Positions 6,613 through 42,341 of a stretch of DNA of 64,000 nt are shown here, piece by piece. The notes under the pieces are model-generated. The model was not told the DNA's origin, ran no database searches, and worked only from the letters and a program-made list of their open reading frames with translations. A program made the position numbers and the translations under genes. Location: positions 15,167-79,166 of the forward strand of contig JAFSOA010000008.1 in the NCBI GenBank assembly GCA_017447265.1. The letters run 5' to 3'. The stretch is from Bacteroidales bacterium (GTDB lineage Bacteria > Bacteroidota > Bacteroidia > Bacteroidales > UBA932). How positions within the stretch are numbered: position 1 is the stretch's first letter; each line of letters opens with the position of its first letter.

Positions 6613-6714
6613 AGCAATTTGACGCGGGACACCCAAATTGAACTCTGAATCAGCCTCTCACGATGCTGTAAGGGCGGTTTTGGTCAGCAGACTGGAAAAG
6701 TGCGGAAAACAGGA
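6613..6714 (+). repeat. 102-bp direct repeat, copy 1
   Basis: AGCAATTTGACGCGGGACACCCAAATTGAACTCTGAATCAGCC... is identical to 10041..10119 over the first 79 nt. The next ~23 nt carry 3 mismatches. Confidence 0.95.
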
Positions 6715-6841: not shown

Positions 6842-6970
6842 ATGGATCAAACTAAAAAAGCTCCGTATCTCTCACCTGAAGTAAGGGTTTTCGAGGTGAA
6901 AACAGAAGGGGTCATCTGTAATAGCGGCCGCGTTCAAGACTACAACTGGAACCAGTACGAAGAAGAGTAA
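6842..6970 (+). CDS. candidate 42-aa small ORF upstream of the large lipoprotein gene
   Basis: ATG..TAA read by hand: MDQTKKAPYLSPEVRVFEVKTEGVICNSGRVQDYNWNQYEEE. Below the ORF-track size cutoff. Lies between the predicted promoter and the 6996 start codon. Confidence 0.35.
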   Translation: MDQTKKAPYLSPEVRVFEVKTEGVICNSGRVQDYNWNQYEEE

Positions 6971-6995
6971 CGCCCAATTTAAAACGAAGGAAGCA

Positions 6996-9881
6996 ATGAA
7001 TAACATAGTGCGATTTTTCGGCATGGCCGCCCTCGTTGCAACGGGCGCTATCCTTTCGGGCTGCTCCAAGAGTGAAATGGAGGAACCGGAAATCAGGAAC
7101 AATTCGGATATTACGGATAACATCGTAACTGTCACCACGACCATCAATCTGGATGAGAATGATGCCACCAGGGCGCTGGCCATTGACTACGATGCAAAGA
7201 CGCTCACGAAGACCTTTGCCGTGGGCGATAAGATTGCTGTCATCTATCAGAACAATAGCGGCAATTTGGATAAGGCTGAGAGCGTGGCCCTTACCGATAG
7301 CGACCTCTTTGGTGGGGGCAAGTCGGCAAAGATTACAGTTTCCCTGACCGACCCGAAGGCCTACGGCAGTGTGAAACTCATCTACCCCGCGTCCATGGCC
7401 GGCACGGACGATGTGGACTATTCCATGCTCAAGAATCAGACAGGCACACTGGCAGGCATCGCCGCATCGTTCGACCTCGCCACCTTTGAAGGCAGTCTGG
7501 ATGGAGGGTATAGACTTCCAGCCTCAGTAAAGCTGGAGAACGAGTTTGCCATCATCGCTTATACACTGAAGAATGAGTCCGGCGCAAACGATATCACCGG
7601 CACTATCACGGGAATGACCATCAACGACGGCACCAACGGATACACCATCTCGGGCCGGGATTCCGACGGCCGCATATACGCAGCCATCCGTCCCACAAGC
7701 CATGCCGGCATCAATTACTTCGCCACCAACGGCACGAAGAACTACAACAAGTCCGTGACTGACAAGACCTACGAGGCCGGACAGTTCTATCAGCTGGGAC
7801 TGAGAATGGCGGAGGCCCCTGTCACCGACCTCTCCACTATCAGTGCCAATTACACGGTTTCAAACGGTGAAACGATCACCGGAACACTGGCTGGCAGCTA
7901 CAAGATTTCCATCGCCGCCGGCGCCACGGTAACGCTGAAGGACATGACCATTGGCGGCACTGACAATTCAGACTACCAGTGGGCCGGCATCACCTGCCTG
8001 GGCGATGCCACCATTTTCCTCAGCGGTACGAACATCGTGAGAGTATACCGAGCTGGAGAGCCGGGCATCCTGGCCGGTCCAAAGGGTACGTCGCTGACCA
8101 TCAGCGGTACAGGTTCACTTGATGTTAGCAGCGATTTCGGAGGTGCAGGCATCGGCAGCGGCACTGACGAATGCGGTGACATCATCATCAGCGGCGGCAC
8201 CATCACCGCAAAGGGTGGCTTCGGCGCACCCGGCATAGGCAGCGGCAGATCAAATTCCTGCGGCAACATTACCATCTGCGGCGGCACCATCACGGCCAAG
8301 GGCGGTGGATATGGAGTAGGTATTGGCGGCGGCTGGGACGGCTCCTGCGGTGACATCACCATCACTGACGGCGTAACCAGCGTCACCGCCATCAAGGGCG
8401 AAGACTCTGTCAACTGCATCGGCGCAGGCATTGACGGCACCTGCGGCACGGTAACCATAGGCGGCGTAGTGAGGGGCAACATCAGCGAGAGCCCTTATTT
8501 TTACCCCGAACCCACCAGACTCTCAACACTCTCATCTGACTACACGGCGGCTGACGGTGAAACGCTCTACGGCACGCTGGCCGGCAACTACAAGATTTCC
8601 ATCGCCGCCGGCGCCACGGTAACGCTGAAGGATGTGACCATCGACGGCAGCGGCAATTATGCCGGCATCAATTGCATGGGCGATGCCACCATCATCCTCG
8701 ACGGCACGAACAACGTAAAGGGATACTCTTCGGACTATCCCGGTATCTATGTGCCACGATATAAAACGCTCACCATCCTGGGTACGGGCTCGCTTACAGC
8801 TGTCGGCAACGACCGTGGCGCGGGCATCGGTGGCAGTTCTGGTGCAGACTGCGGAAACATCGTGATTGAGGGTGGCACCATCGCTGCGACGGGCGGCACC
8901 CATGCTGCCGGTATCGGCAGCGGCGGTTACGGCTCCTGCGGCGACATCACCATCAGCGGCGGAACTGTTACGGCCACAGGCGGAGATGAAGCTGCCGGTA
9001 TTGGCAGCAGTTGGGGTTCCTGCGGCAAAATCACCATCACTGACGGCGTGACCAGCGTCACCGCCACCAAGGGCTTTGACGCCTACAACAGCATCGGCGC
9101 GGGCTATCAAGGCTCCTGCGGCACGGTGACCATAGGCGGCAACGTGGGTGCAATCAGCAAGAGTCCTTACACTTTCCCCGTAATCACCGACCTTTCGACC
9201 GTCGATGGCAACTACACCGCTTTGAACCTGGAAACGCTCACCGGCACGCTGGCCGGCAACTACAAGATTTCCATCGCCGCCGGCGCTACGGTAACGCTGA
9301 AGGACATGACCATTGTCGGCACGGACAATTCAGACTACCAGTGGGCCGGCATCACCTGCGAGGGCAATGCCACCATCATCCTCGAAGGCACGAACAGCGT
9401 GGAGGGATCCTCTTATTATTATCCCGGTATCCATGTGCCGAAGGGCAGCACGCTGACCATACGGGGCACCGGTTCGCTCACTTCCAGCGGCAAAGGCGGC
9501 GGCTCGGGAATAGGCGGCATAGGTGTAAGCGACGGCAATAGATCCTATTGCGGAAACATCACGATTGAAGGCGGCATCATCACTGCCAGGGCCGGCGAAT
9601 ATGCTGCCGGCATCGGCGGCGGCAAAAACTGCAACTGCGGCAATATCACAATCACAGGCGGCACCGTCACGGCCTACGGCGGTACCAAATCAGCCGGCAT
9701 CGGCAGCAGTATGGGAAGTGACTGCGGCAATATCAGAATAACCGACGGCGTGACCAAAGTCACAGTTTACTCCGGTGCCAACTACGCCATAGGGCCAGGC
9801 ATTAACGGCTCCTGTGGCTCCGTGCGCATCGGCAGCAACTCAGGCGGTGTCGCCGGCGCCCCTTACGTCTATCAGCCATAA
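6996..9881 (+). CDS. large surface lipoprotein: fimbrillin-like N-terminal region + three ~225-aa beta-helix-type repeats
   Basis: Lipobox LSGC. Three repeats each open with TGTLAG(N/S)YKISIAAGATVTLKD(M/V)TI, followed by stacked ~24-aa coils G-x-AGIGSG-xxx-CG-x-ITI-x-GGT(I/V)TA. Confidence 0.85.
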   Translation: MNNIVRFFGMAALVATGAILSGCSKSEMEEPEIRNNSDITDNIVTVTTTINLDENDATRALAIDYDAKTLTKTFAVGDKIAVIYQNNSGNLDKAESVALTDSDLFGGGKSAKITVSLTDPKAYGSVKLIYPASMAGTDDVDYSMLKNQTGTLAGIAASFDLATFEGSLDGGYRLPASVKLENEFAIIAYTLKNESGANDITGTITGMTINDGTNGYTISGRDSDGRIYAAIRPTSHAGINYFATNGTKNYNKSVTDKTYEAGQFYQLGLRMAEAPVTDLSTISANYTVSNGETITGTLAGSYKISIAAGATVTLKDMTIGGTDNSDYQWAGITCLGDATIFLSGTNIVRVYRAGEPGILAGPKGTSLTISGTGSLDVSSDFGGAGIGSGTDECGDIIISGGTITAKGGFGAPGIGSGRSNSCGNITICGGTITAKGGGYGVGIGGGWDGSCGDITITDGVTSVTAIKGEDSVNCIGAGIDGTCGTVTIGGVVRGNISESPYFYPEPTRLSTLSSDYTAADGETLYGTLAGNYKISIAAGATVTLKDVTIDGSGNYAGINCMGDATIILDGTNNVKGYSSDYPGIYVPRYKTLTILGTGSLTAVGNDRGAGIGGSSGADCGNIVIEGGTIAATGGTHAAGIGSGGYGSCGDITISGGTVTATGGDEAAGIGSSWGSCGKITITDGVTSVTATKGFDAYNSIGAGYQGSCGTVTIGGNVGAISKSPYTFPVITDLSTVDGNYTALNLETLTGTLAGNYKISIAAGATVTLKDMTIVGTDNSDYQWAGITCEGNATIILEGTNSVEGSSYYYPGIHVPKGSTLTIRGTGSLTSSGKGGGSGIGGIGVSDGNRSYCGNITIEGGIITARAGEYAAGIGGGKNCNCGNITITGGTVTAYGGTKSAGIGSSMGSDCGNIRITDGVTKVTVYSGANYAIGPGINGSCGSVRIGSNSGGVAGAPYVYQP
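7821..9878 (+). repeat. three intragenic tandem repeats (~670-700 bp each)
   Basis: CAAGATTTCCATCGCCGCCGGCGC(C/T)ACGGTAACGCTGAAGGA recurs at 7901, 8591 and 9263. Repeat units are about 7821..8511, 8512..9179 and 9180..9878. Confidence 0.9.
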
Positions 9882-9984
9882 ACTGAGTTCTTATGACCTC
9901 CTGCGGAATTGTTGTCTGAGTTATTGCCTCACGGCTATTTTTCCCTGACCTGTTTCCCGCTCACATGCTCTATCCGGAAATCCA

Positions 9985-10016
9985 GAACGGCGGCTCTGGG
10001 GCCGTTCTTGTTATGC
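9985..10016 (+). terminator. possible terminator of the lipoprotein gene
   Basis: AGAACGGC (9985..9992) pairs with GCCGTTCT (10002..10009), followed by TGTTATGCTT. The T-tract is weak. Confidence 0.3.
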
Positions 10017-10040
10017 TTCCGCCGGACAAACATACTGCGA

Positions 10041-10142
10041 AGCAATTTGACGCGGGACACCCAAATTGAACTCTGAATCAGCCTCTCACGATGCTGTAAG
10101 GGCGGTTTTGGTCAGCAGATTGAAAATGTGCGGAAAACAGGA
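10041..10142 (+). repeat. 102-bp direct repeat, copy 2
   Basis: See 6613..6714. The flanks on both sides of the two copies are unrelated. Confidence 0.95.
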
Positions 10143-11037
10143 AGAGACTCTCCCAGGCCTACGCACGCCAACGCACAGGGCTCTCGCACAATATATACCC
10201 GCCCGCCCTGCGATGGCATCCTCCGGCAGCTGCGCTGCCTCCGGATAGCCCGCTGCCCAGCCAGCCCACTAGCGGATTGCTCCGCTGCTGCGCAGCTCCG
10301 CAACCGCCGGTGTCTCAACCCCTGTCGGCTGCCGCCGACATCCCATTTCAGGGGAAATCGCGGTCATTGAGACCGCGGCGCCGCTCATGGTGCAGGTGTT
10401 GGCTGTTGAGGTAACGCTAGTGCCAGTAGTGATGGAGGTCAATGCCGATGCTGCCAGCGCCAGCGCGGTCCACGTTCCTATAGTATCAGTGCTTATAGTG
10501 CTATTGGGGAAATCGAGACCCCGGGCCGATGTCTTCCATATATACCAGGGAAGGAGACCATTCTTCCTGATGCCGATGATGATATCCGCCTTCGGCGAAA
10601 TTAAGCCCTGTCGGGCTTTTCCTCCTTGCGGCTCGGCATAGCAAACGAGTTTGCTATGCTCTCGCTCGCTGCGTCGGTTTTGGCCGGTGCCGTTCGGGCC
10701 GATGGTGCCAGGCCTCCGTTGTCGGGCACTCACTGCGGCCTGCAGCGTCGGTGCGGTGCGAGGGTAGATCAGCGGTCAGCCGTATTCGGCAGTCCAGCAC
10801 GGCTGGCCAGCCCAATACGTCTGGGTTATATGAGTGCCCGCCAGTCCGCCGTGGCGGCCAGGCCGGCACGATTAAGGGAAAAGCGGTATGGGAGACTGTG
10901 TCAGTTGCTCTCCCCAAAGGGGCCCCTCAGCAACCGCCACAGACTCCCATCCTGTCATCCCCCCGGCCCCCAAGGGAGATAACGCCCGGGAGGCGTCGGA
11001 GCAGTTCGGAGGTCCGTCCTCCGGGGGCCGCTGTCAT

Positions 11038-11172
11038 AACATAACGAGCGCTAAATTGTATAACTTCCTGCATCAGCGGTAGTGCCCCGTCCGGAAATCA
11101 GTTAAAGTGCGAGTATAGGTAACAACGTACAAACGCCTTACACGCAGGAAGTTATACAATTTTCGTTATGTT
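11038..11172. repeat. 29-bp perfect inverted repeat (5-nt bulge) enclosing a 72-nt AT-richer segment
   Basis: AACATAACGA[gcgct]AAATTGTATAACTTCCTGC (11038..11071) is the exact reverse complement of GCAGGAAGTTATACAATTTTCGTTATGTT (11144..11172). Confidence 0.9.
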
Positions 11173-11933
11173 AAAAAAGCTACAACGTTCCAAGTGCGAA
11201 GGCTTTCCCCCTGAACTCCCGGTCGAGGCGGCGGCAGGAGAGGGACTGGCGGCAGTGGCCGGTCCGTCACCGGCCCTTTGCCAGCCCCGCGCCGGGCAGA
11301 GGAATCGGGGCCCCGTACCCCCCAATTCCTCTACCTCGGCGCAGCCCCGCATCAGCGACATCAATATTCCACTGACATCTCCCGCATCAGCATTGGTGCA
11401 GTTCGAGCATCCTGCCGCCTTATGCCCTTCGGGCGGGTCGCTCCGTCTGTGACTCCTTGTGGCCGGGCAAGCCGTCCACAAAGAGTCAAGAGCCTCCGCT
11501 CCAAGGTAGAGTATCACCTGGTCGCTGTTCCGGAAGGCCTTTCCGTCCTTCCGCAGTCGCTACGGTCACACGGGTGCTACGCATCCCGTGTCACCTCCGC
11601 TTTGCTCCAGAACGGAAAAGCCTCCCGGGCGCCCAGGAAGCGGTCCTCCGGCCTGCTGGCGCAGCGTGTGTCAGGACAAGCCAGCCACACCCTGCGCGGT
11701 GGAAACCGTCCCTGCATTGGCTTCGCCGCCAGCGATATCCTTCGATTCAGCCTTGCTATGGGCCGTCCCGGCCCAGGCCCCGGAGGCCGTTTGCCCACCG
11801 CACAGTCCACTGTCTTTGTCGGCGGTCTGGAGCCTAAGGTCTCCAGCCCGTTGGCCCGCCAAAGCCAGTGGCCACCCCACACTTCCAGACCGCCTCCGGG
11901 GCCAACGCTCCAGTCTCTGCGCTCCTTCCGCGT

Positions 11934-12042
11934 CCTTGGTCATTTAGAGACTCAAAGGCCGGCGCCCGCCTCAACGCCGGCAACAATTCCCACGACATCA
12001 CCCGCGCCATCGTCCAGCCTTTGAGACTCTAAACAACCAAGG
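11934..12042. repeat. 24-bp extended inverted repeat (1 mismatch, 2x2 internal loop)
   Basis: CCTTGGT-ca-TTTAGAGACTCAAAGGC (11934..11959) pairs with GCCTTTGAGACTCTAAA-ca-ACCAAGG (12017..12042). Confidence 0.85.
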
Positions 12043-12191
12043 CCACCCTGCTGACGTACGCCCCAACCGCAGTGCTAAAACCACCGCCGTACCCCGCCCG
12101 AGCCGCAGAACATAGAATATATATACCACAAGGAAGCAGCGGCTGGCGCCGCTGCGGTGGCCTTGCGCTTGGATAAGATGCGGATTTTCAG

Positions 12192-12199
12192 TAATTTTG
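12192..12199 (+). promoter_or_regulatory. -7 promoter motif for paralog 1
   Basis: TAATTTTG matches TAnnTTTG, 60 nt upstream of the ATG at 12259. Confidence 0.4.
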
Positions 12200-12258
12200 T
12201 TGAGGCTTTGATGCCTGACTGTTGTTGCCGACCTGACCAAAACACCAAACCTGAACTT

Positions 12259-12981
12259 ATGCCCCTTTTCCGGCCTTCCATACTCTTTTCCGACGCCTAC
12301 GGCTCCACCAAGGACTTCACCTGGTTCCATCGGGGCGGGAAGTGCTTTGTCAAGAGACGGGTGAGGCCCACGTATGTGACAACGCCGGCACGGCAGGAAT
12401 ACCTGGATGTCCACCGGCGGGCGCTGGCCGCCTGGCGTGAACAGGAGCATCAGGTCCAGCTGCAGTGGAACGAACTCGGTCGCTCCGCCATAAGCCACCG
12501 GCCACCCTACGACAACACAACCTGGATATCCGGGCAGAATCTCTTCGTATCGGCCTATCACGGTTTCTACACCCTGGGGAACGAGCATACGCCAGCGCCT
12601 CTGCCATTCGGGCCGTTCCCGGTGTTCGCGATGGAGTTTTCGTCGGCTTCCATCACCGGGAGCGGCGCTTTGTCGTTGAGGTTCCGGGGATATTGCGGCG
12701 GCACCGATTGTCCGGAGCGTTACAGGATCCTGATGAAACTGTATATTACCAGGCCCGGAAGGGGTAAGAGCATGGAGAAGCTGCGTAACGTCCTCGCGTC
12801 TTCCGTCTGCTCCGGGGAGTCCTGCTTCATCGACTTCATCATCCCGGATTATCTGGAGAGGTGGCATCTGGATGCGCTGCCAAGCTACGGCGCCCATTGC
12901 CAGTACATAGTCCTGGACACGCAGACCGGCTACCGGGACCAGTACAGGAGCTACGATTTCCAGTTCGACCTTCCTCAATGA
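12259..12981 (+). CDS. uncharacterised paralog family member 1 (most divergent)
   Basis: Start chosen by alignment to the paralogs: MPLFRPSILFSDAYGSTKDFT versus M..(I/L)PSIAF...SGSAKGVT. Shared W..L....Q..W..L and SG.NL(F/Y) motifs. The listed start 12157 adds 34 unaligned residues. The long antisense ORF 11998..12978 was rejected. Confidence 0.7.
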   Translation: MPLFRPSILFSDAYGSTKDFTWFHRGGKCFVKRRVRPTYVTTPARQEYLDVHRRALAAWREQEHQVQLQWNELGRSAISHRPPYDNTTWISGQNLFVSAYHGFYTLGNEHTPAPLPFGPFPVFAMEFSSASITGSGALSLRFRGYCGGTDCPERYRILMKLYITRPGRGKSMEKLRNVLASSVCSGESCFIDFIIPDYLERWHLDALPSYGAHCQYIVLDTQTGYRDQYRSYDFQFDLPQ

Positions 12982-13150: not shown

Positions 13151-14203
13151 ATGATCGCTTTACCGTCCATTGCCTTCGGCGGATTCAGCGGCTCCGCGAA
13201 GGGCGTAACGGCCCGCTACCGGGACGGCCGCAGCATCCTGTCCCTGAAGTGCTACCCGACCGGGGAGGCAACCGTCGCACAGATAGCCCGCCGCGTATCC
13301 ATGGCGAGGATCACGAAGTCCTGGAAGAAGCTGACCGACATCCAGCGGCAGGACTGGGACCGCCTGGCAGGTCACGCCAGCGGCCAGAGCGTTTTCGGGC
13401 AGAAGGCGGAACTCTCCGGCATGAACCTCTACGTCCGGCTTAACGTCAACCGCGTCATGGCCGGCGAATCCCTCCTTTCCACGCCTCCTGCAGGCCAGGT
13501 GGCTGTCCCCAATGTCGAGTATGAAAATGTGTCCGTGACTCCGCAGCTGATTGTCTTCGGTGGCATCCGGCACCAGTCCAGCCCCAATAAGTTGGTGGTG
13601 AAGATGTCCGGGAGCCAGTCTGCCGGCATCTCCAATGGCTGGAGCAAGACGGTCATTATTTCTTCCGAGGTGGAGGATGACTGGGGTGAAGCGGATGTGA
13701 CCTCCCTCTATCTCAAGACTATCGGTGTGGAGCCTACGCCCGGCCAGAAGGTCTTCATCGAGTGCTACTGGCTGGACACTTCCACCGGTTTCACGGGGCA
13801 GATCTTCAAGGACAGCGTGATTGTCACTGGAGAGTCCTCCTACACGCCCCGCAAGCGTGTGACTATGGACCGGCTTAACCCGAACTATGAGCAGCACGTA
13901 AGTGCCATTGACGTGGACTTTTCCTCCGGCGCTCCTGTCGTTCAGTATGACGTGATGTGCGAAGGCCATAGCAACGTAGCCTCCTCTGAGGTGAATCTGG
14001 TAGATGAACTGCCGGCTGAACTTCAGGGAACGTCCTGGGCTATTGGCCGTGGCAACGGTGAGGACGGTAAACTTTGCGCCCAGTCCTATGTAATGTGGCT
14101 CTACGGCGCCCGGTATGGCGACCCTGCCAAGATCACCTTCGCGCATCGAGGCGGCTATTATGTCAAACCTACCGAGGTCTTCGGGCCTGGCGTAATCTAC
14201 TAA
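13151..14203 (+). CDS. uncharacterised paralog family member 2 (long C-terminal extension)
   Basis: MIALPSIAFGGFSGSAKGVTARYRDGR...WKKLTDIQRQDWDRLA...LSGMNLYVRLN aligns with 15747..16472 over about the first 110 aa. The antisense ORF 13160..14263 was rejected. Confidence 0.8.
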   Translation: MIALPSIAFGGFSGSAKGVTARYRDGRSILSLKCYPTGEATVAQIARRVSMARITKSWKKLTDIQRQDWDRLAGHASGQSVFGQKAELSGMNLYVRLNVNRVMAGESLLSTPPAGQVAVPNVEYENVSVTPQLIVFGGIRHQSSPNKLVVKMSGSQSAGISNGWSKTVIISSEVEDDWGEADVTSLYLKTIGVEPTPGQKVFIECYWLDTSTGFTGQIFKDSVIVTGESSYTPRKRVTMDRLNPNYEQHVSAIDVDFSSGAPVVQYDVMCEGHSNVASSEVNLVDELPAELQGTSWAIGRGNGEDGKLCAQSYVMWLYGARYGDPAKITFAHRGGYYVKPTEVFGPGVIY

Positions 14204-14210
14204 TAAGGCT

Positions 14211-14954
14211 ATGAACTTCAATTCTTTAGGCAATAATTTTGGGGCTGGCTCCATCAGTTTCAAGTCCCATCAGGAGGAGAATTTCGTAGTCCTGAACGCG
14301 AATTTCACCTACAATCCGGAAAACGCAGACTATCAGGCTGCAGATGTCCTGGAAATCTATGTGCCGGACCTCTCTATAGGTCGTAGTGCCATTGCCGGTG
14401 TGTTCCTCCGGTTCAGCGATGTCAGGGATAGTTACGGTTACACTTGGGATAACAGCGGCGGTACCGTCTTGAAATCCTGGGTAAAGGACAAAAACACGAT
14501 CTGCATCGAGAAGTTCACCAACTTCGACGAGAAAGGAGAGATTACCATCTACATCCTGACTCTCTACACGATGCTGGCCCGGGGCGGAAACCCCATCAAG
14601 GGAACACAGACAAGGCTCCAGACTTCCACTGAAGGCAATTATCTTCGCTGGGGGTATGACTCGTTCTTCGTGGAGTTTGAGCATTGGATCTTCTTGCACA
14701 TGATGTATTCCAGCTGTACTTATGCGTACCGGGATTCCGCTTGGGAATGCAGTCTGGATAACCTGCCGTCCGGCATTACTGCAGACCTTCCGTTCTGTGG
14801 TGGCGGCAACCAGTACAATCCGTCTGTGGATGGTATGTCGGAAGCCCACATTGAGAATGGTGTATTAACCTGTGCAACCCGCACCGCCGGCTTTGATGAC
14901 ACCGGCCACGAGCCTTTCATCTTCGCCTTCCTGGTGCGTGACAGTGAAGAATAA
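14211..14954 (+). CDS. hypothetical protein
   Basis: 247-aa ORF with balanced composition, 7 nt after the upstream stop. No recognisable motif. Confidence 0.65.
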   Translation: MNFNSLGNNFGAGSISFKSHQEENFVVLNANFTYNPENADYQAADVLEIYVPDLSIGRSAIAGVFLRFSDVRDSYGYTWDNSGGTVLKSWVKDKNTICIEKFTNFDEKGEITIYILTLYTMLARGGNPIKGTQTRLQTSTEGNYLRWGYDSFFVEFEHWIFLHMMYSSCTYAYRDSAWECSLDNLPSGITADLPFCGGGNQYNPSVDGMSEAHIENGVLTCATRTAGFDDTGHEPFIFAFLVRDSEE

Positions 14955-14965
14955 CTGACTGCCTT

Positions 14966-15262
14966 ATGTCCGCCAAGAAGAAATACGAGCTCACCCGCCT
15001 GCAGGGCGCAATGTCCATCGCCAGCTTCAGTGCCGGCACGGTCATCTGCATGGTGTGCCTTTTCTTTGTCCCTCCCATCGGTGAAATCTCCAGCACGGCG
15101 ATGATGGCCGTCTCGGAATTCCTGGTTCTCTGCGGCGGGCTGCTTGGCTCCAAGGCCAGCTTCGATATGCGGATGCAGCGCTTTGAAGCCAAGGTGATGA
15201 ACGAGATCCGTAATGCCGATGCTCCCGGCCAGCCCGAAAACGACCACAAAACTGAATTATGA
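14966..15262 (+). CDS. small two-TM membrane protein, holin-like
   Basis: 98 aa with two hydrophobic helices (AMSIASFSAGTVICMVCLFFV and TAMMAVSEFLVLCGGLLG) and a charged C-terminal tail. Stop overlaps the next start (ATGA). Confidence 0.6.
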   Translation: MSAKKKYELTRLQGAMSIASFSAGTVICMVCLFFVPPIGEISSTAMMAVSEFLVLCGGLLGSKASFDMRMQRFEAKVMNEIRNADAPGQPENDHKTEL

Positions 15263-15750
15263 AAAACGCCTCCGCCCATATACCATTGCTCTTGCTCTTC
15301 CTTCTTCCCTGGGTTGCTTCCTGTGGTGTTGTCCAGCCTGTGACAGGTGCAGACAACACCCGGGTGGAGGTCCGTACCGTTACCGAGACCGTCCACGACA
15401 CGGCCTGGGTAGAGCTGCCGGTCATCGTGGAGAAGGTGGCCACTCTCGATACGGCATCAGTCCTGGAGAATAAATACGCCAAATCGGCCGCTTCCGTCTC
15501 CGGAGGTGTTCTGCATCACTCCCTGCAGACAAAGCCCGTCAGGGAGCCCGTGAGCGTCGAGACAAAGATTGTTTACCGCGACTCCCTGGTGTACCGGGAC
15601 AGGATCCGGACAGAGACCGTTGAGGTGGAAAGAAAACTTTCATCCTGGCAGGCCTTCAAGATGAAGACCGGAGGCCTCACACTTACGATATTACTTATTG
15701 CAGTAATTTATATAACCTTATCCATCATCCTAAAACTTAAACCTTTATGA
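15259..15750 (+). CDS. lipoprotein with a C-terminal TM anchor, unimolecular-spanin-like
   Basis: Lipobox LPWVASC at the N-terminus and TM helix LTLTILLIAVIYITLSIILKL at the extreme C-terminus. The middle is beta-strand-rich (VEVRTVTETV, VSVETKIVYRD). ATGA overlaps on both sides. Confidence 0.6.
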   Translation: MKNASAHIPLLLLFLLPWVASCGVVQPVTGADNTRVEVRTVTETVHDTAWVELPVIVEKVATLDTASVLENKYAKSAASVSGGVLHHSLQTKPVREPVSVETKIVYRDSLVYRDRIRTETVEVERKLSSWQAFKMKTGGLTLTILLIAVIYITLSIILKLKPL

Positions 15751-16472
15751 AGTACATTCCAAGCATCGCCTTCGAGGAGATGAGCGGCAGCGCCAAGGGC
15801 GTTACGGCCGCTAAGATGAAAGGTCGCAAGTACATCAAGAACCGCGGCTACGGCAGCGGCATCCGCACCAGCGACCAGGCCAAAATCAAGGGAGTATTCA
15901 AGTCCTTGGTGACCCGCTGGAAGGCCCTTTCCAACGACCAGCTGCTCGCGTGGAACAAACTCGCGCTCAGCCAGGAAGGCCGCAGCGTCCTCGGCACCAA
16001 AGCCAAGATCTCCGGCTTCAACCTCTTCACCCGCCTCAACCACTGGGTCGTGACCCTCGGCGGGGAACTTATGACCACGCCGCCCACCCTAGTCGGCGTA
16101 GAGACTCCTTCCGGAGCCACCATCGTCTGCCAGGGTGACACCTTCACCTTCAAGCTGGACCAGGACCTCTCCGACAACGGAGGCATCTTCCTCATCATCG
16201 AGGCCACCGAAGGCCAGTCCAACGGCGTTTCCCGCGCCCACAGCAAAGCCGTCGAGATCAAGACCGTCGAAGAGCCCGACGACACCGCCATCAACATCCG
16301 TGCGGACTACGTGGCCAAGCATGGCGCCCCCAGCGCAGCTGCCCCGAAGATCTTCTTCCGCTACTACTTCGTCAACAGCGCCACCGGCGAAAAGTCCGTT
16401 TCCATGCTTGCCGAGTGCAAGTGGGAGCCCGCCGCTGCCGTACCCGAAGAGCCCGCTGGCGGCGGAGACTAA
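15747..16472 (+). CDS. uncharacterised paralog family member 3
   Basis: MKYIPSIAFEEMSGSAKGVTAAKMKGRKYIKNRGY...WKALSNDQLLAWNKLA...ISGFNLFTRLN. Basic N-terminal arm and acidic/Pro-rich tail. Translationally coupled to 15259..15750. Confidence 0.8.
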   Translation: MKYIPSIAFEEMSGSAKGVTAAKMKGRKYIKNRGYGSGIRTSDQAKIKGVFKSLVTRWKALSNDQLLAWNKLALSQEGRSVLGTKAKISGFNLFTRLNHWVVTLGGELMTTPPTLVGVETPSGATIVCQGDTFTFKLDQDLSDNGGIFLIIEATEGQSNGVSRAHSKAVEIKTVEEPDDTAINIRADYVAKHGAPSAAAPKIFFRYYFVNSATGEKSVSMLAECKWEPAAAVPEEPAGGGD

Positions 16473-16742: not shown

Positions 16743-17273
16743 AAGATTCTTGCCTGGAACAAGCTGGCCCTCTCTCAGGAAGGCCGCAGCGTCCTCGGCT
16801 CCAAGGCCAAGATCTCCGGAGCCAACCTGTTCACCCGCCTTAACTACTGGATTGTCGCTTGCGGCGGCCAGCCTGAGGTGACCCCGCCTGAACTGGTGGG
16901 TGTGGAGAACCCTTCCGGCGCCACCATCGTGTGCCAGGGTGACACCTTCACCTTCAAGCTGGACCAGGCCCTGGCTGACAACGGCGGCATCTTCCTCGTG
17001 ATTGAGGCCACCGAAGGCCAGTCCAATGGTGTGAGCCGTGCTCATGCCAAGGCTTCCGCCGTGAAGCTCGTGGAAGAGCCCACCGATGCCGCCATCGACA
17101 TCCGTGCGGACTACGTGGCCAAGTACGGCGCCCCCAGCGCTGCGGCCCCGAAGATCTTCTTCCGCTACTACTTCGTCAATTCCAGCACCGGCGAGAAGTC
17201 CGGTACCATGCTGGCGGAGTGCAAGTGGGCCGCTGCTGCCGCCCAGAACGCAGACCCCGGCGACGGTGATTAA
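16743..17273 (+). pseudogene. 5'-truncated copy of paralog 3 (C-terminal ~175 codons only)
   Basis: 16749..17273 aligns colinearly with 15945..16472 at roughly 80 percent identity by eye, with substitutions of all types. The frame is open from the TAA at 16740..16742 but has no ATG. The first alternative start is GTG at 16878. Confidence 0.7.
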
Positions 17274-17365: not shown

Positions 17366-17566
17366 TCAGTCGTTCTCGTCCAATTGGAAGATGGACTCAA
17401 CCGGTTTCCCAAAATGACGGGCAATCTTCAAGGCCAATACAGTAGAAGGAAGGTAACGTCCGGATTCAATGGAAATAATGGTGTTACGGCTTACGCCTAC
17501 TGCGTCGGCCAACTGTTGCTGGGTTATGTCCAGAATGGCCCTTTCTACACGAACTGTGTTTTTCAT
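17366..17566 (-). CDS. XRE-family helix-turn-helix transcriptional regulator
   Basis: 66 aa. ITQQQLADAVGVSRNTIISIESGRYLPSTVLALKIARHF is a canonical Cro/C1-type HTH. Confidence 0.9.
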   Translation of the reverse strand: MKNTVRVERAILDITQQQLADAVGVSRNTIISIESGRYLPSTVLALKIARHFGKPVESIFQLDEND

Positions 17567-18018
17567 AAGGCCTGGTCCTTTTTGGATTGACGGAGAAGCA
17601 CGCGGAAGATCAGATAGTATAAGCCAGCACCCGCTATGGGCAGGACAATAAGAAAAAGTTCACTCAAAAATGGGCTTATGGTTCCGACATTACTCGTGAA
17701 TAAATCGAGCAAATGCAACTCTAGTGTAAGGCTCAAGAGTAGGAAAACTACGAAAAGAACATAACCGGTTAGCCCCAGGGCCTTGAGTCGCAGGCCGGAG
17801 ATCATTTCGTCTTCTACCTTCTCCTTGGAGAGGGTAATGAAGAACAGCGAGGCAATGAGAACGAAGTGAGAAGATTTTGCCAGATACCAAGCCACATCAA
17901 TATTATGTGTGGTATATGAGAGGATAATCTTGGCAACTACAATGAGAGCCGTTAGGAGAAGAAGTCACCAGCCAATCTTCTGGCAGGAGTGTGGCATAAG
18001 GATACTTTTGCTATTCAT
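17563..18018 (-). pseudogene. membrane protein gene interrupted by an in-frame TGA at codon 18
   Basis: Manual translation from ATG 18018 gives MNSKSILMPHSCQKIGW*LLLLTALIVVAKIIL... in frame with the listed ORF 17563..17895, which starts at GTG. The promoter motif sits upstream of the 18018 start. Confidence 0.6.
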
Positions 18019-18046
18019 GGCGTTTACTTGAATTGTGTTCCTTGTG

Positions 18047-18054
18047 CAAAGTTA
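18047..18054 (-). promoter_or_regulatory. -7 promoter motif for the membrane-protein/XRE operon
   Basis: The minus strand reads TAACTTTG, 29 nt upstream of ATG 18018. A nearby palindrome ATGCAAA-n6-TTTGCAT (18070..18089) could be an operator. Confidence 0.45.
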
Positions 18055-18218
18055 AGCATATTTTTCATAATGCAAAATAAACTTTGCATATTTCTTATTA
18101 TTTTTTACCATAGCCCCTATGCTCTACTTTTGCCGTGATGGTGGAACGTCCCGCGAACACGGCCGGAACGCGCCAGCGCATACCGTTGCTTTTGTCAGGA
18201 ATTTGCTTTGGCTTTGCT

Positions 18219-18821
18219 TCAGTCCTGGTTGAGGCTGTCCACGTAGGCCTTGATTCCTTCAACGTGCAGCTGGACAATGGCGGCCTTTCCTTCGTCGCTG
18301 AGGAGGAACTCCAGGGACTCCTGGCAATCCATAAATCCTGATTCCGTCAGGCATGCCGCGCAGGCAGTTTTGTGGAGGATGGCGAAGTTTGCTTCCTGGT
18401 CCGGATCTCCGTCGGAATAATCGAAGCGCATCCGATGACCGGGCAGGATCTGGAGGGCGGCAGCACAAAGACAGTTGGCCAGTTTGTCTCCCTCCGTATG
18501 GCCTTTGCTCGTGTAGCAGCACCAGCCGGTGGCGTTATACCATTTGTCGCCGCGTCCGGCAGCGTTCACGTGGATGGAAACCAGACAGACGTTCCGGCGG
18601 CCAAACTCGGAGCAAACGCGGTTGACTCTTTTGCAGCGCTCTGCCAGAGAAATGTCTTCATCTTCAGGAACCAGCAGGGAAGCGTAGAAGTGTTCGGATT
18701 GGAGGGCGGCCACAACACGCCGGGCGATTTCCCGGTTGTAAGACCATTCAAGGAGACGGCCGTCAGGAGAGCGCTTTCCTGCAGTTTCACGGCCGTGTCC
18801 GTTGTCAATCAAGATTTTCAT
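18219..18821 (-). CDS. N-acetylmuramoyl-L-alanine amidase (Amidase_3-like)
   Basis: MKILIDNGHGRETAGKRSP...SIHVNAAG...NFAILHKT...ESGFM matches the zinc-amidase motif pattern. Confidence 0.85.
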   Translation of the reverse strand: MKILIDNGHGRETAGKRSPDGRLLEWSYNREIARRVVAALQSEHFYASLLVPEDEDISLAERCKRVNRVCSEFGRRNVCLVSIHVNAAGRGDKWYNATGWCCYTSKGHTEGDKLANCLCAAALQILPGHRMRFDYSDGDPDQEANFAILHKTACAACLTESGFMDCQESLEFLLSDEGKAAIVQLHVEGIKAYVDSLNQD

Positions 18822-19005
18822 AGGACATAGGGTTTAGGTTGCAGGTCGGCAGACCAAAGATAGTCAAAATTCGGAGGAAAGGGAAAAATTCGTATCTTTG
18901 CAGCGACACGTCGGTTGCCAAGCCGATATGTTAAATTTCGTACGGGGCCGGGCCGCTGTGAAGCTCCTGGCCCTTTTCAGTACACTGCGGAATATCCATT
19001 ATATT

Positions 19006-19228
19006 AGTACATTTTCAGTACATTATCACGAAAAATCAGATATAAAAAACGCCCCTCACGTATGTGAGAGACGTTTTTAGGCGGTGCGGAAGGGACCGCG
19101 AATTACGAAAATCGATATATCAATGATTTTTAGTACATTTTCAGTACATTTTGGCGAAAACTAAAACAAAAAGATGCCCCACAATTGCTTGTAAGGCATC
19201 TTTAAGCGGTGCGGACGAGACTCGAACT
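19006..19228. repeat. tandem ~126-bp duplication: AGTACATTTTCAGTACATT + terminator hairpin + tRNA 3'-end
   Basis: AGTACATTTTCAGTACATT occurs at 19006..19024 and 19132..19150. GCGGTGCGGAagggaccgcgaa (19081..19102) mimics the tRNA-Asp 3' end GCGGTGCGGAcgagactcgaac (19206..19227). Each unit carries its own hairpin. Confidence 0.8.
19160..19203 (-). terminator. rho-independent terminator of tRNA-Asp
   Basis: On the minus strand, AAAGATGCC...GGCATCTTT forms a 9-bp stem followed by TTTTTGTTTT. Confidence 0.6.
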
Positions 19229-19280
19229 CGCGACCTCCGGCGTGACAGGCCGGCATTCTAACCAGCTGAACTACCGCACC
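19207..19280 (-). tRNA. tRNA-Asp (anticodon GTC)
   Basis: Reverse complement is GGTGCGGTAGTTCAGCTGGTTAGAATGCCGGCCTGTCACGCCGGAGGTCGCGAGTTCGAGTCTCGTCCGCACCG. It folds as a cloverleaf with a 7-bp acceptor stem and anticodon loop CTGTCAC. CCA is not encoded. Confidence 0.93.
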
Positions 19281-42179: not shown

Positions 42180-42214
42180 AGAAATGGAATCCTTCGGGAA
42201 AGGGCACGAAAAAA

Positions 42215-42311
42215 GGGTAAGCTTGATATATCGCACCGCTACAACCACCTACCCTTGCTGCCTTCCGACCCTGGGGGAGTTCAGTGGGAGCTGGTCGTAT
42301 ACGACTTACCC
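42215..42311 (-). ncRNA. ffs: signal recognition particle RNA (4.5S-type)
   Basis: The minus strand reads GGGUAAG...CCCCCAGGGUCGGAAGGCAGCAAGGGUAGG...CUUACCC. It has a conserved domain IV-like GGAA tetraloop context and closing terminal helix. A TACCTTTG promoter motif sits at 42317..42324 (-) and a T-run follows the 3' end. Confidence 0.8.
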
Positions 42312-42341
42312 CGGCACAAAGGTAAGCATTTTTTTGAATAA

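Follow-up and report, generated by a model that had tools for sequence, protein, structure and literature searches.

A conserved structured element of about 1.3 kb, most likely a minus-strand RNA, in a small Bacteroidales island

What does a bacterial genome keep in 2,377 nucleotides (nt) where no gene can be found? This question is raised by a 64,000-nt stretch of the Bacteroidales contig JAFSOA010000008.1 (the window in what follows), in which the gene of a beta-helix repeat protein of 961 amino acids (aa) ends at position 9881 and the 240-aa gene gp1 starts at position 12259. The original prediction, made from the letters of the DNA, had put forward about 2 kb of this gap, beginning at a 102-nt repeat, as a candidate for a very large structured RNA, or for several RNAs. 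Here the gap is divided into two parts, a conserved element at 10873-12198 and a left part that lies outside the family of this element. The element is one copy of a new, widespread and previously undescribed family of structured non-coding elements of about 1.3 kb. With a probability of about 0.6, this large base-paired family is best explained as a stable minus-strand RNA of about 1.25-1.3 kb that belongs to an island. The two regions are:

9882-12258 (2,377 nt), no strand assigned: the whole gene-free gap between the beta-helix gene and gp1, with no called gene and no credible Pfam match
10873-12198 (1,326 nt), most likely minus strand: the family-conserved structured element, a candidate non-coding RNA (ncRNA) of about 1.3 kb, defined by profile nhmmer positions 1-1307, by covariation and by strand evidence

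The description of the tract as poor in open reading frames (ORFs) was borne out. Gene callers placed no gene across the gap on three metagenome contigs that are 100% identical to it, and a Pfam search with ten ORFs inside the gap gave no match for nine of them and one weak, sub-threshold match (E 0.17). The related statement that the tract is richer in GC than its flanks is correct to a slight degree (0.61-0.62 against 0.58), but other parts of the window reach 0.63-0.65.

Conservation, folding and coding signal

An alignment of gp1, covering 26 of its protein clusters, was used to retrieve 79 loci from GTDB species genomes, and the hosts of these loci are nearly all uncultured rumen or gut Bacteroidales. 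With the gap sequence as the nhmmer query, more than 45 loci were matched, solely through the right-hand ~1.4 kb. A family profile built from 23 copies located a single copy in the window and detected the element in 65 of 92 sequences; homologous tracts sought in this way, as had been advised, give strong covariation for 10873-12198. Copies measure from about 0.8 to 1.6 kb, and the short versions in L006-L009 (individual loci are cited by L numbers) have about 800 nt and keep only three modules. All members have their modules in colinear order, and no module is a repeat of another. Blocks of the element are at least 90% identical at loci where gp1 is only 45-50% identical. In a metagenome scan that started from the RNA, the element was present in 65 of 76 pattern matches, and the family is abundant in rumen and gut metagenomes. 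No description of the RNA or of the adjoining gene cluster was found in the literature, in which one 2026 preprint on intergenic features was not covered.

The idea of a single unit running from the 102-nt repeat did not hold, since the excess of structure and all family-wide conservation are found only in 10873-12198. The claim of a very large structured RNA accordingly stands for this element, by covariation and non-coding character, and falls for the first 730-990 nt. Conservation in the element tracks helices and is accompanied by compensatory changes, which lie above those of controls, as is generally expected of a structured ncRNA. The alignments gave the following values in the two orientations:

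Plus-orientation alignment, 23 sequences: 297 pairs in 49 helices; 91.4% of cells paired, slid controls 37-42%; double changes in 131 pairs; covariation score 0.241 against ~0.05; none of 500 shuffles equally good
Minus-orientation alignment, 27 sequences: 323 pairs in 54 helices; 91.0% of cells paired, slid controls 37-44%; double changes in 157 pairs; covariation score 0.279 against 0.05-0.07; none of 500 shuffles equally good

Three domains of the minus-orientation fold illustrate this pattern:

11037-11173, minus strand: long hairpin; its A/U-rich stem UAACAUAA / UUAUGUUA is invariant, and the stem inside it covaries (helices 48-49; 8 pairs without variation, double changes in 13)
11776-11903, minus strand: domain with an 18-bp closing helix (helix 12; double changes in 8 pairs, 95% paired)
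11934-12042, minus strand: 27-bp helix domain (helix 8; double changes in 16 of 27 pairs, 98% paired)

The other general property of an ncRNA, absence of coding signal, is also found in the element. Mismatches are equal across the three codon phases (14 sequence pairs) and indels are mostly 1 nt long; therefore, the element is neither coding nor decayed coding DNA. Decayed pseudogene DNA had been named beforehand as the principal alternative, and together with a gene in an alternative genetic code it could appeal to the long stop-free frames that about half of the members have on the C-rich strand. On the other hand, mixed stop codons are present in all six frames, with all three types in almost every frame, so that the stop-codon census is negative for an alternative code; no codon periodicity is seen in the substitutions, indels are not multiples of three, no Pfam match is credible, and conservation runs along helices with compensatory changes. 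The codon-phase, indel and stop data exclude a decayed or recoded gene despite the long frames, and we leave this explanation practically no probability.

Strand and ends

The functional strand of the element is most likely the minus strand, as judged from sequence. The energy of the alignment fold is -659.9 for the minus strand against -603.7 for the plus strand, and among the 249 pairs common to both folds there are 128 G·U pairs in the minus and 83 in the plus orientation, some of which are nearly invariant in the minus-orientation alignment. The shuffle-corrected minimum free energy z of 10873-12198 is -18.3 for minus and -6.9 for plus, with coding controls ranging from -2.8 to +1.4. Each of the 23 members tested has a G-rich minus strand, also where the copy is inverted relative to the genes, which shows that the strand asymmetry travels with the element. 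A reading of the tract as a leader that runs into the paralog genes is not supported, as the most likely strand is divergent from these genes. The ends of the element and the adjoining promoter are marked by these features:

10873-10887, minus strand: U-rich tail ACCGCUUUUCCCUUAA, at the exact end of conservation
10888-10951, minus strand: long hairpin before the U-tail, a terminator-like 3' end, sequence-variable across the family with the hairpin kept
12114-12127, no strand assigned: conserved A/T-rich palindrome, with the family consensus GTATATATTTATAC on the minus strand
12137-12156, minus strand: conserved GC hairpin GCAGCGGC-N4-GCCGCUGC (helices 1-2) at the end facing the gene cluster, resembling a terminator when read on the minus strand
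12192-12199, plus strand: -7 box TAATTTTG of gp1, outside the structured core, its position conserved in the family

In members with a complete end, the long hairpin with its variable stem is followed by the tail ACCGCUUUUCCUUUAU, and conservation halts exactly there. The hairpin 10951-10873 was not listed when the minus strand was scanned for terminators with a simple scanner, because its stem and loop are too long for the rules of that scanner. At the opposite end, the A/T-rich palindrome is a possible promoter or operator. In the proposed mechanism, the RNA would start near the conserved hairpin and the palindrome, at about 12.11-12.16 kb, and would end at the hairpin and U-tract 10951-10873. 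The promoter of the first paralog gene, which had been placed at the end of the tract, is present as the Bacteroidetes -7 box at 12192.

The linked gene cluster and possible roles

Next to the element, the window holds a set of genes that reach as far as a tRNA gene:

12259-12981, plus strand: gp1, 240 aa, without family annotation; no other gene is linked as tightly to the element
13151-14203, plus strand: gp2, 350 aa, whose N-terminal ~110 aa make it a paralog of gp1 and gp6
14211-14954, plus strand: gp3, 247 aa, unannotated
14966-15750, plus strand: gp4 (98 aa) and gp5 (163 aa), in an order conserved across loci
15747-16472, plus strand: gp6, 241-aa paralog, with a partial duplicate at 16878-17273
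17366-18821, minus strand: Xre-type helix-turn-helix (HTH) gene, gene of a 110-aa membrane protein and Amidase_3 endolysin-like gene
19206-19280, minus strand: tRNA-Asp bordering the island, with a like arrangement in L012

The usual order is RNA, gp1 (240 aa), gp2 (350 aa), gp3 (247 aa), sometimes gp4 and gp5, and gp6 (241 aa); in a second arrangement gp1 to gp6 come first and the RNA follows in inverted orientation, and at some loci the RNA and gp1 stand alone and are followed by an integrase. Among the 65 element-bearing metagenome stretches of the RNA-first scan, 57 had enough flank, and gp1 or gp6 lies at the same end of the element in 54 of these 57 (gp1 at a distance of 8-715 nt in 51, gp6 or a fragment of it in 3). 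The element is therefore linked to gp1 or gp6 from either search direction. Two further layouts were seen. The gp2-gp3-gp6 block is inverted relative to RNA-gp1 in L039, L042 and L096, and in the L052-L076 group (12 loci) a conserved tyrosine integrase comes right after gp1, with gp2-gp6 undetected in the retrieved flank; these layouts suggest that blocks were inverted, or that a fixed site behind gp1 received insertions.

Such close linkage could also be that of a cis-acting or antisense regulator of gp1 and its cluster, in the form of a giant leader or of a divergent antisense transcript over the gp1 promoter. The element lies within 8-715 nt of the gp1 start or adjoins gp6, and it has an intergenic region in common with the gp1 -7 box. 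However, the gp1 promoter is downstream of the element, which places the element outside the gp1 5' untranslated region; in the second arrangement the element comes after gp6 and not before gp1; a covarying structure of 1.3 kb is out of scale with known leaders; and the strand evidence is directed away from gp1. Regulation of this kind is, in our judgement, improbable.

The proteins give few indications of function. The N-terminal ~110 residues are common to gp1, gp2 and gp6, and the translations of these N-terminal arms contain basic residues. In AlphaFold2 (AF2) models, gp1 and gp2 have a low-confidence N-terminal arm, a short hairpin and three helices, followed by immunoglobulin/fibronectin type III (Ig/FN3)-like sandwiches, one in gp1 and two in gp2. 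Homologues of gp1, which has no annotation, form more than 780 protein clusters, and those of gp2 more than 1,100. In more than 120 of its protein clusters gp2 is exactly 350 aa long and 80-93% identical, and the adjacent gp1 is 45-50% identical in most of the homologues listed, so that constraint within the gene cluster is very uneven. There are two hydrophobic segments in gp4, and gp5 has a lipoprotein signal and a C-terminal transmembrane segment; judged by sequence, gp4 looks holin-like and gp5 spanin-like. The amidase near the cluster matches PHROG endolysins. Searches of gp1-gp6 against Pfam, PHROGs, NCBIfam, PADLOC and PDB sequences yielded no function, and the PADLOC defence models matched only the Xre HTH gene, through generic regulator models. 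At L048, gp6 carries a C-terminal CHB_HEX_C_1/Fn3_assoc domain. In the window, the C-terminal half of gp6 is duplicated (15940-16239 and 16744-17043, 79% identity), giving a 131-aa fragment ORF at 16878-17273.

Many clusters are bordered by tRNA-Phe, -Ser, -Arg or -Asp genes. At L048, a 30-nt repeat that includes the 3' end of tRNA-Arg brackets gp1-gp2-gp3-gp6-RNA as a 5.5-kb unit without integrase, and at L025 a 42-nt tRNA-derived direct repeat flanks the cluster. A tyrosine integrase of Bacteroidetes type is present in L025, L090, L093 and the L059-type loci; in L090 and L093 it stands beside gp1, with the RNA at the far end. The island of the window, from the RNA to tRNA-Asp, has neither an integrase nor a bracketing repeat of the tRNA-Asp 3' end, and contains only a 15-nt copy of that end at 125 nt from the tRNA gene (19076-19090). 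This copy is included in a tandem duplication of ~126 nt (19004-19090 and 19130-19215) that adjoins tRNA-Asp and looks like a small scar of att (attachment-site) type. A guide-like match between the att core of L048 and its RNA amounts to a 9-mer only, which is at chance level. Defence and mobile-element genes are frequent neighbours (AAA_21/RloB, MmeI, DpnII restriction-modification, Piwi). At L096 (6504-10711, on a 560-kb contig), RNA-gp1 comes directly after a Piwi-domain (prokaryotic Argonaute, pAgo) gene and DpnII restriction-modification and lies between two primase- and integrase-bearing elements; this locus is a defence or mobile-element hotspot.

The element is solidly established as an integral part of a small Bacteroidales island. 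The description of the neighbouring cluster as phage-like holds for its lysis genes and for the tRNA-associated, integrative character of the islands, but a search of 50,697 phage records found neither the RNA nor gp2, plasmid records likewise have no gp2, and gp2 occurs on only 3 IMG/VR contigs. As to virus hallmarks, gp1-gp6 have no PHROG match and no capsid fold match, and only the amidase and the Xre gene are phage-like. Prophage or virus identity was rejected on the lack of a hallmark match and the absence from phage records. The cluster consists of widespread unannotated Bacteroidales genes, flagged here as residents of integrative islands and defence hotspots.

Kinship with a named class of large RNA had been considered from the outset. 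An Rfam cmscan of both strands of the tract at E<=10 gave only microRNA-like hairpin noise, and a scan at gathering thresholds of the window and 13 family loci gave only tRNA and the signal recognition particle (SRP) RNA, so the covariance-model search for a known class ended without a family match. No covariance model of the named large RNAs in Rfam (GOLLD, ROOL, OLE, HEARO, raiA and others) matches, and the element is therefore outside the GOLLD, ROOL and OLE families. A group I or II intron was likewise rejected, as there is no Rfam intron match and no reverse transcriptase or maturase domain in the neighbouring genes. The expectation that the RNA would exceed GOLLD, ROOL, OLE and HEARO in length is correct for an element of ~1.3 kb; apart from ribosomal RNA, no named non-coding RNA of bacteria is, to our knowledge, as large.

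GOLLD and ROOL often occur in prophages near tRNA genes, and ROOL was first seen in rumen metagenomes. Both are large ornate bacterial RNA classes (PMC12286853). The element resembles them in its very large, intricate fold with many conserved helices and in its place in mobile, lysis-associated DNA beside tRNA genes; it differs in being ~1.5-2 times longer, in its Bacteroidales hosts, in being tied to one protein cluster rather than to assorted phage genes, and in its absence from phage genome records. OLE RNA, with OapA, OapB and OapC, is a large structured RNA encoded beside the genes of candidate partner proteins (PMC9723947, PMC12054373). The element is likewise encoded beside genes of possible partner proteins, and OLE could serve as a model for a ribonucleoprotein (RNP), whereas there is no homology, and OLE is ~600 nt long, belongs to Bacillota and is chromosomal, not on mobile islands. 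The parallel between an OLE-type RNP and the element with gp1 would be one of synteny. With the tRNA-targeting islands and phage satellites of Bacteroidota, the element has in common its tRNA-adjacent location, the tRNA-derived direct repeats (L048, L025), a Bacteroidetes-type tyrosine integrase in some copies, and restriction-modification, pAgo and ATPase gene neighbours, but its cargo matches no phage, satellite or defence family, and many copies, that of the window included, have no integrase.

What could the minus-strand RNA do in such an island? The cargo of the island would comprise the paralogs gp1, gp2 and gp6, gp3, a lysis-type module and sometimes a tyrosine integrase and tRNA-derived repeats. 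It may tentatively be proposed, at less than even odds, that the RNA acts in trans with the cluster proteins, above all gp1, as their structural partner, their scaffold or a cargo that they package; the proposal draws on the bidirectional synteny, on the flexible N-terminal arms with basic residues and on the lysis module. A more far-reaching version, which we consider doubtful, would see in the RNA and gp1-gp6 a new small, mobile, lysis-releasing Bacteroidales element whose paralogs assemble around or package the 1.3-kb RNA in an RNA-centred particle or RNP. Equally doubtful is what this version would imply for the island, namely that it is centred on an RNA and targets tRNA genes without recognisable capsid or replication genes. 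In a weaker form, the RNA alone may have a new biochemical role and be the largest class of non-ribosomal structured RNA so far known from bacteria. Few large ornate RNAs have been found in bacteria, and every one of them (RNase P, group II introns, OLE, GOLLD, ROOL) has revealed RNA biochemistry or architecture that was new; the family described here is about double the size of these named non-ribosomal classes. With more than 150 covarying pairs in 27 sequences, abundance in metagenomes and fixed candidate protein partners, experiments could start directly.

Several points weigh against the explanation as a single large RNA with protein partners. The U-tract of the tail is broken by C, and no canonical Bacteroidetes TAnnTTTG promoter box was found for the minus strand of the element. 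G-rich strands fold better in general, a concern that the shuffle-corrected z lessens and does not remove. At the level of sequence, RNA and single-stranded DNA look the same. The role as partner or cargo is drawn from synteny and generic protein features. Foldseek searches with the AF2 models found only generic Ig/FN3 sandwiches with TM<=0.29 (gp1 against PDB and BFVD, gp2 against PDB), and hence neither a capsid nor an RNA-binding match for gp1 and gp2. Finally, the long-range closing helices have no covariation, and the element may therefore consist of several RNAs or of domains that fold separately, one after another.

This last point leads to the explanation of the element as a string of independent units (small RNAs, terminators or repeat-type hairpins) that is conserved as a whole. 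Folding into local domains, longest-range helices without covariation, the short versions L006-L009 with their three modules and a terminator-like site inside the element at 11641-11620 are all in keeping with it. The colinear order of modules in every member, the single terminator-like end exactly where conservation stops, the promoter-box scan, which found none inside the element, and the lack of repetition among the modules argue for one RNA instead, and a string of this type is about as improbable as regulation of gp1.

The main rival, unlikely as it is, sees in the element the region through which the excised island would be replicated, primed or packaged. ColE1 RNA II and the intergenic regions of filamentous phages are strand-specific folds that let a small replicon work without an initiator of its own. 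Modelled on the former, the element would be a G-rich primer transcript that forms an R-loop at an origin; modelled on the latter, the folded strand would be single-stranded DNA. Either form would explain how the island multiplies without a replication gene, and four observations speak for it: the minimal 5.5-kb repeat-flanked unit contains no recognisable replication gene, the element occupies the end of the island, close to the far att repeat, richness in G is a consistent feature of the functional strand, and a conserved A/T-rich palindrome stands amid GC-rich helices. The likeness to these regions is that of a strand-specific folded nucleic acid. They measure 0.3-0.55 kb and have a handful of hairpins, unlike the element, whose 54 densely covarying helices over 1.2 kb far exceed the need of known primer RNAs and single-strand origins. 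Of ColE1-type features, no equivalent of the antisense RNA I, no origin and no circular form was found for the element. None of the loci has the terminal overlaps that mark circular contigs, and circular or extrachromosomal contigs are absent among them. Moreover, the RNA and gp2 are missing from phage records and gp2 from plasmid records, and many copies, including that of the window, have neither integrase nor flanking repeats, which leaves excision only putative.

Left part of the gap and further observations

The remainder of the gap is of a different nature:

9882-10872, no strand assigned: left part, the first ~990 nt of the gap, outside the family profile

This part shows no family-wide conservation and is absent from the family profile; its fold z is only -2.3 (10143-10872), which is weakly structured, and it has a weak colinear similarity to L054. 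The sequence contains, letter for letter, the hairpins quoted in the original prediction (10324-10339, 10359-10377 and 10637). A two-hairpin module of 85 nt at 10602-10686 is 82% identical to positions 1-85 of L055, a distant locus, with compensatory changes in both stems between the window and L055; its first hairpin together with UUUUCC resembles a plus-strand terminator.

The three occurrences of ATATATACC reported at 10191, 10538 and 12119 were recovered; each is on the plus strand within the gap, the number expected in the window is 0.02, and a hairpin lies within ~10-25 nt after each site. Only the site at 12119 belongs to a conserved module of the family; when a mini-profile of the 5' module was used to look for further copies, the sites at 10191 and 10538 were not among its matches.

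The second copy of the 102-nt direct repeat adjoins the tract as described, at 10041-10142. It is 97% identical to the first copy (6613-6714), and the two bracket the 961-aa beta-helix gene. The first copy is followed by a -7 box (6746) and a 42-aa ORF (6843-6971), the second by the non-conserved part of the gap. The repeat may record that the beta-helix gene was duplicated or inserted, or it may be a small element with a regulatory role.

Two observations concern related loci and the host. At L085 (2400-8400), an island of 45-59% GC lies inside flanks of ~30% GC in a metagenome-assembled genome labelled Bacillota, which indicates horizontal transfer or mis-binning; a GC-rich, C-skewed, structured tract of ~0.9 kb (z -4.9), undetected by the profile, precedes gp1 there. 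In the window, the small SRP RNA of Bacteroidales was found at 42211-42318 on the minus strand (108 bits) with a TAnnTTTG box directly upstream, which confirms the host lineage and the usual promoter type of RNA genes in this genome.

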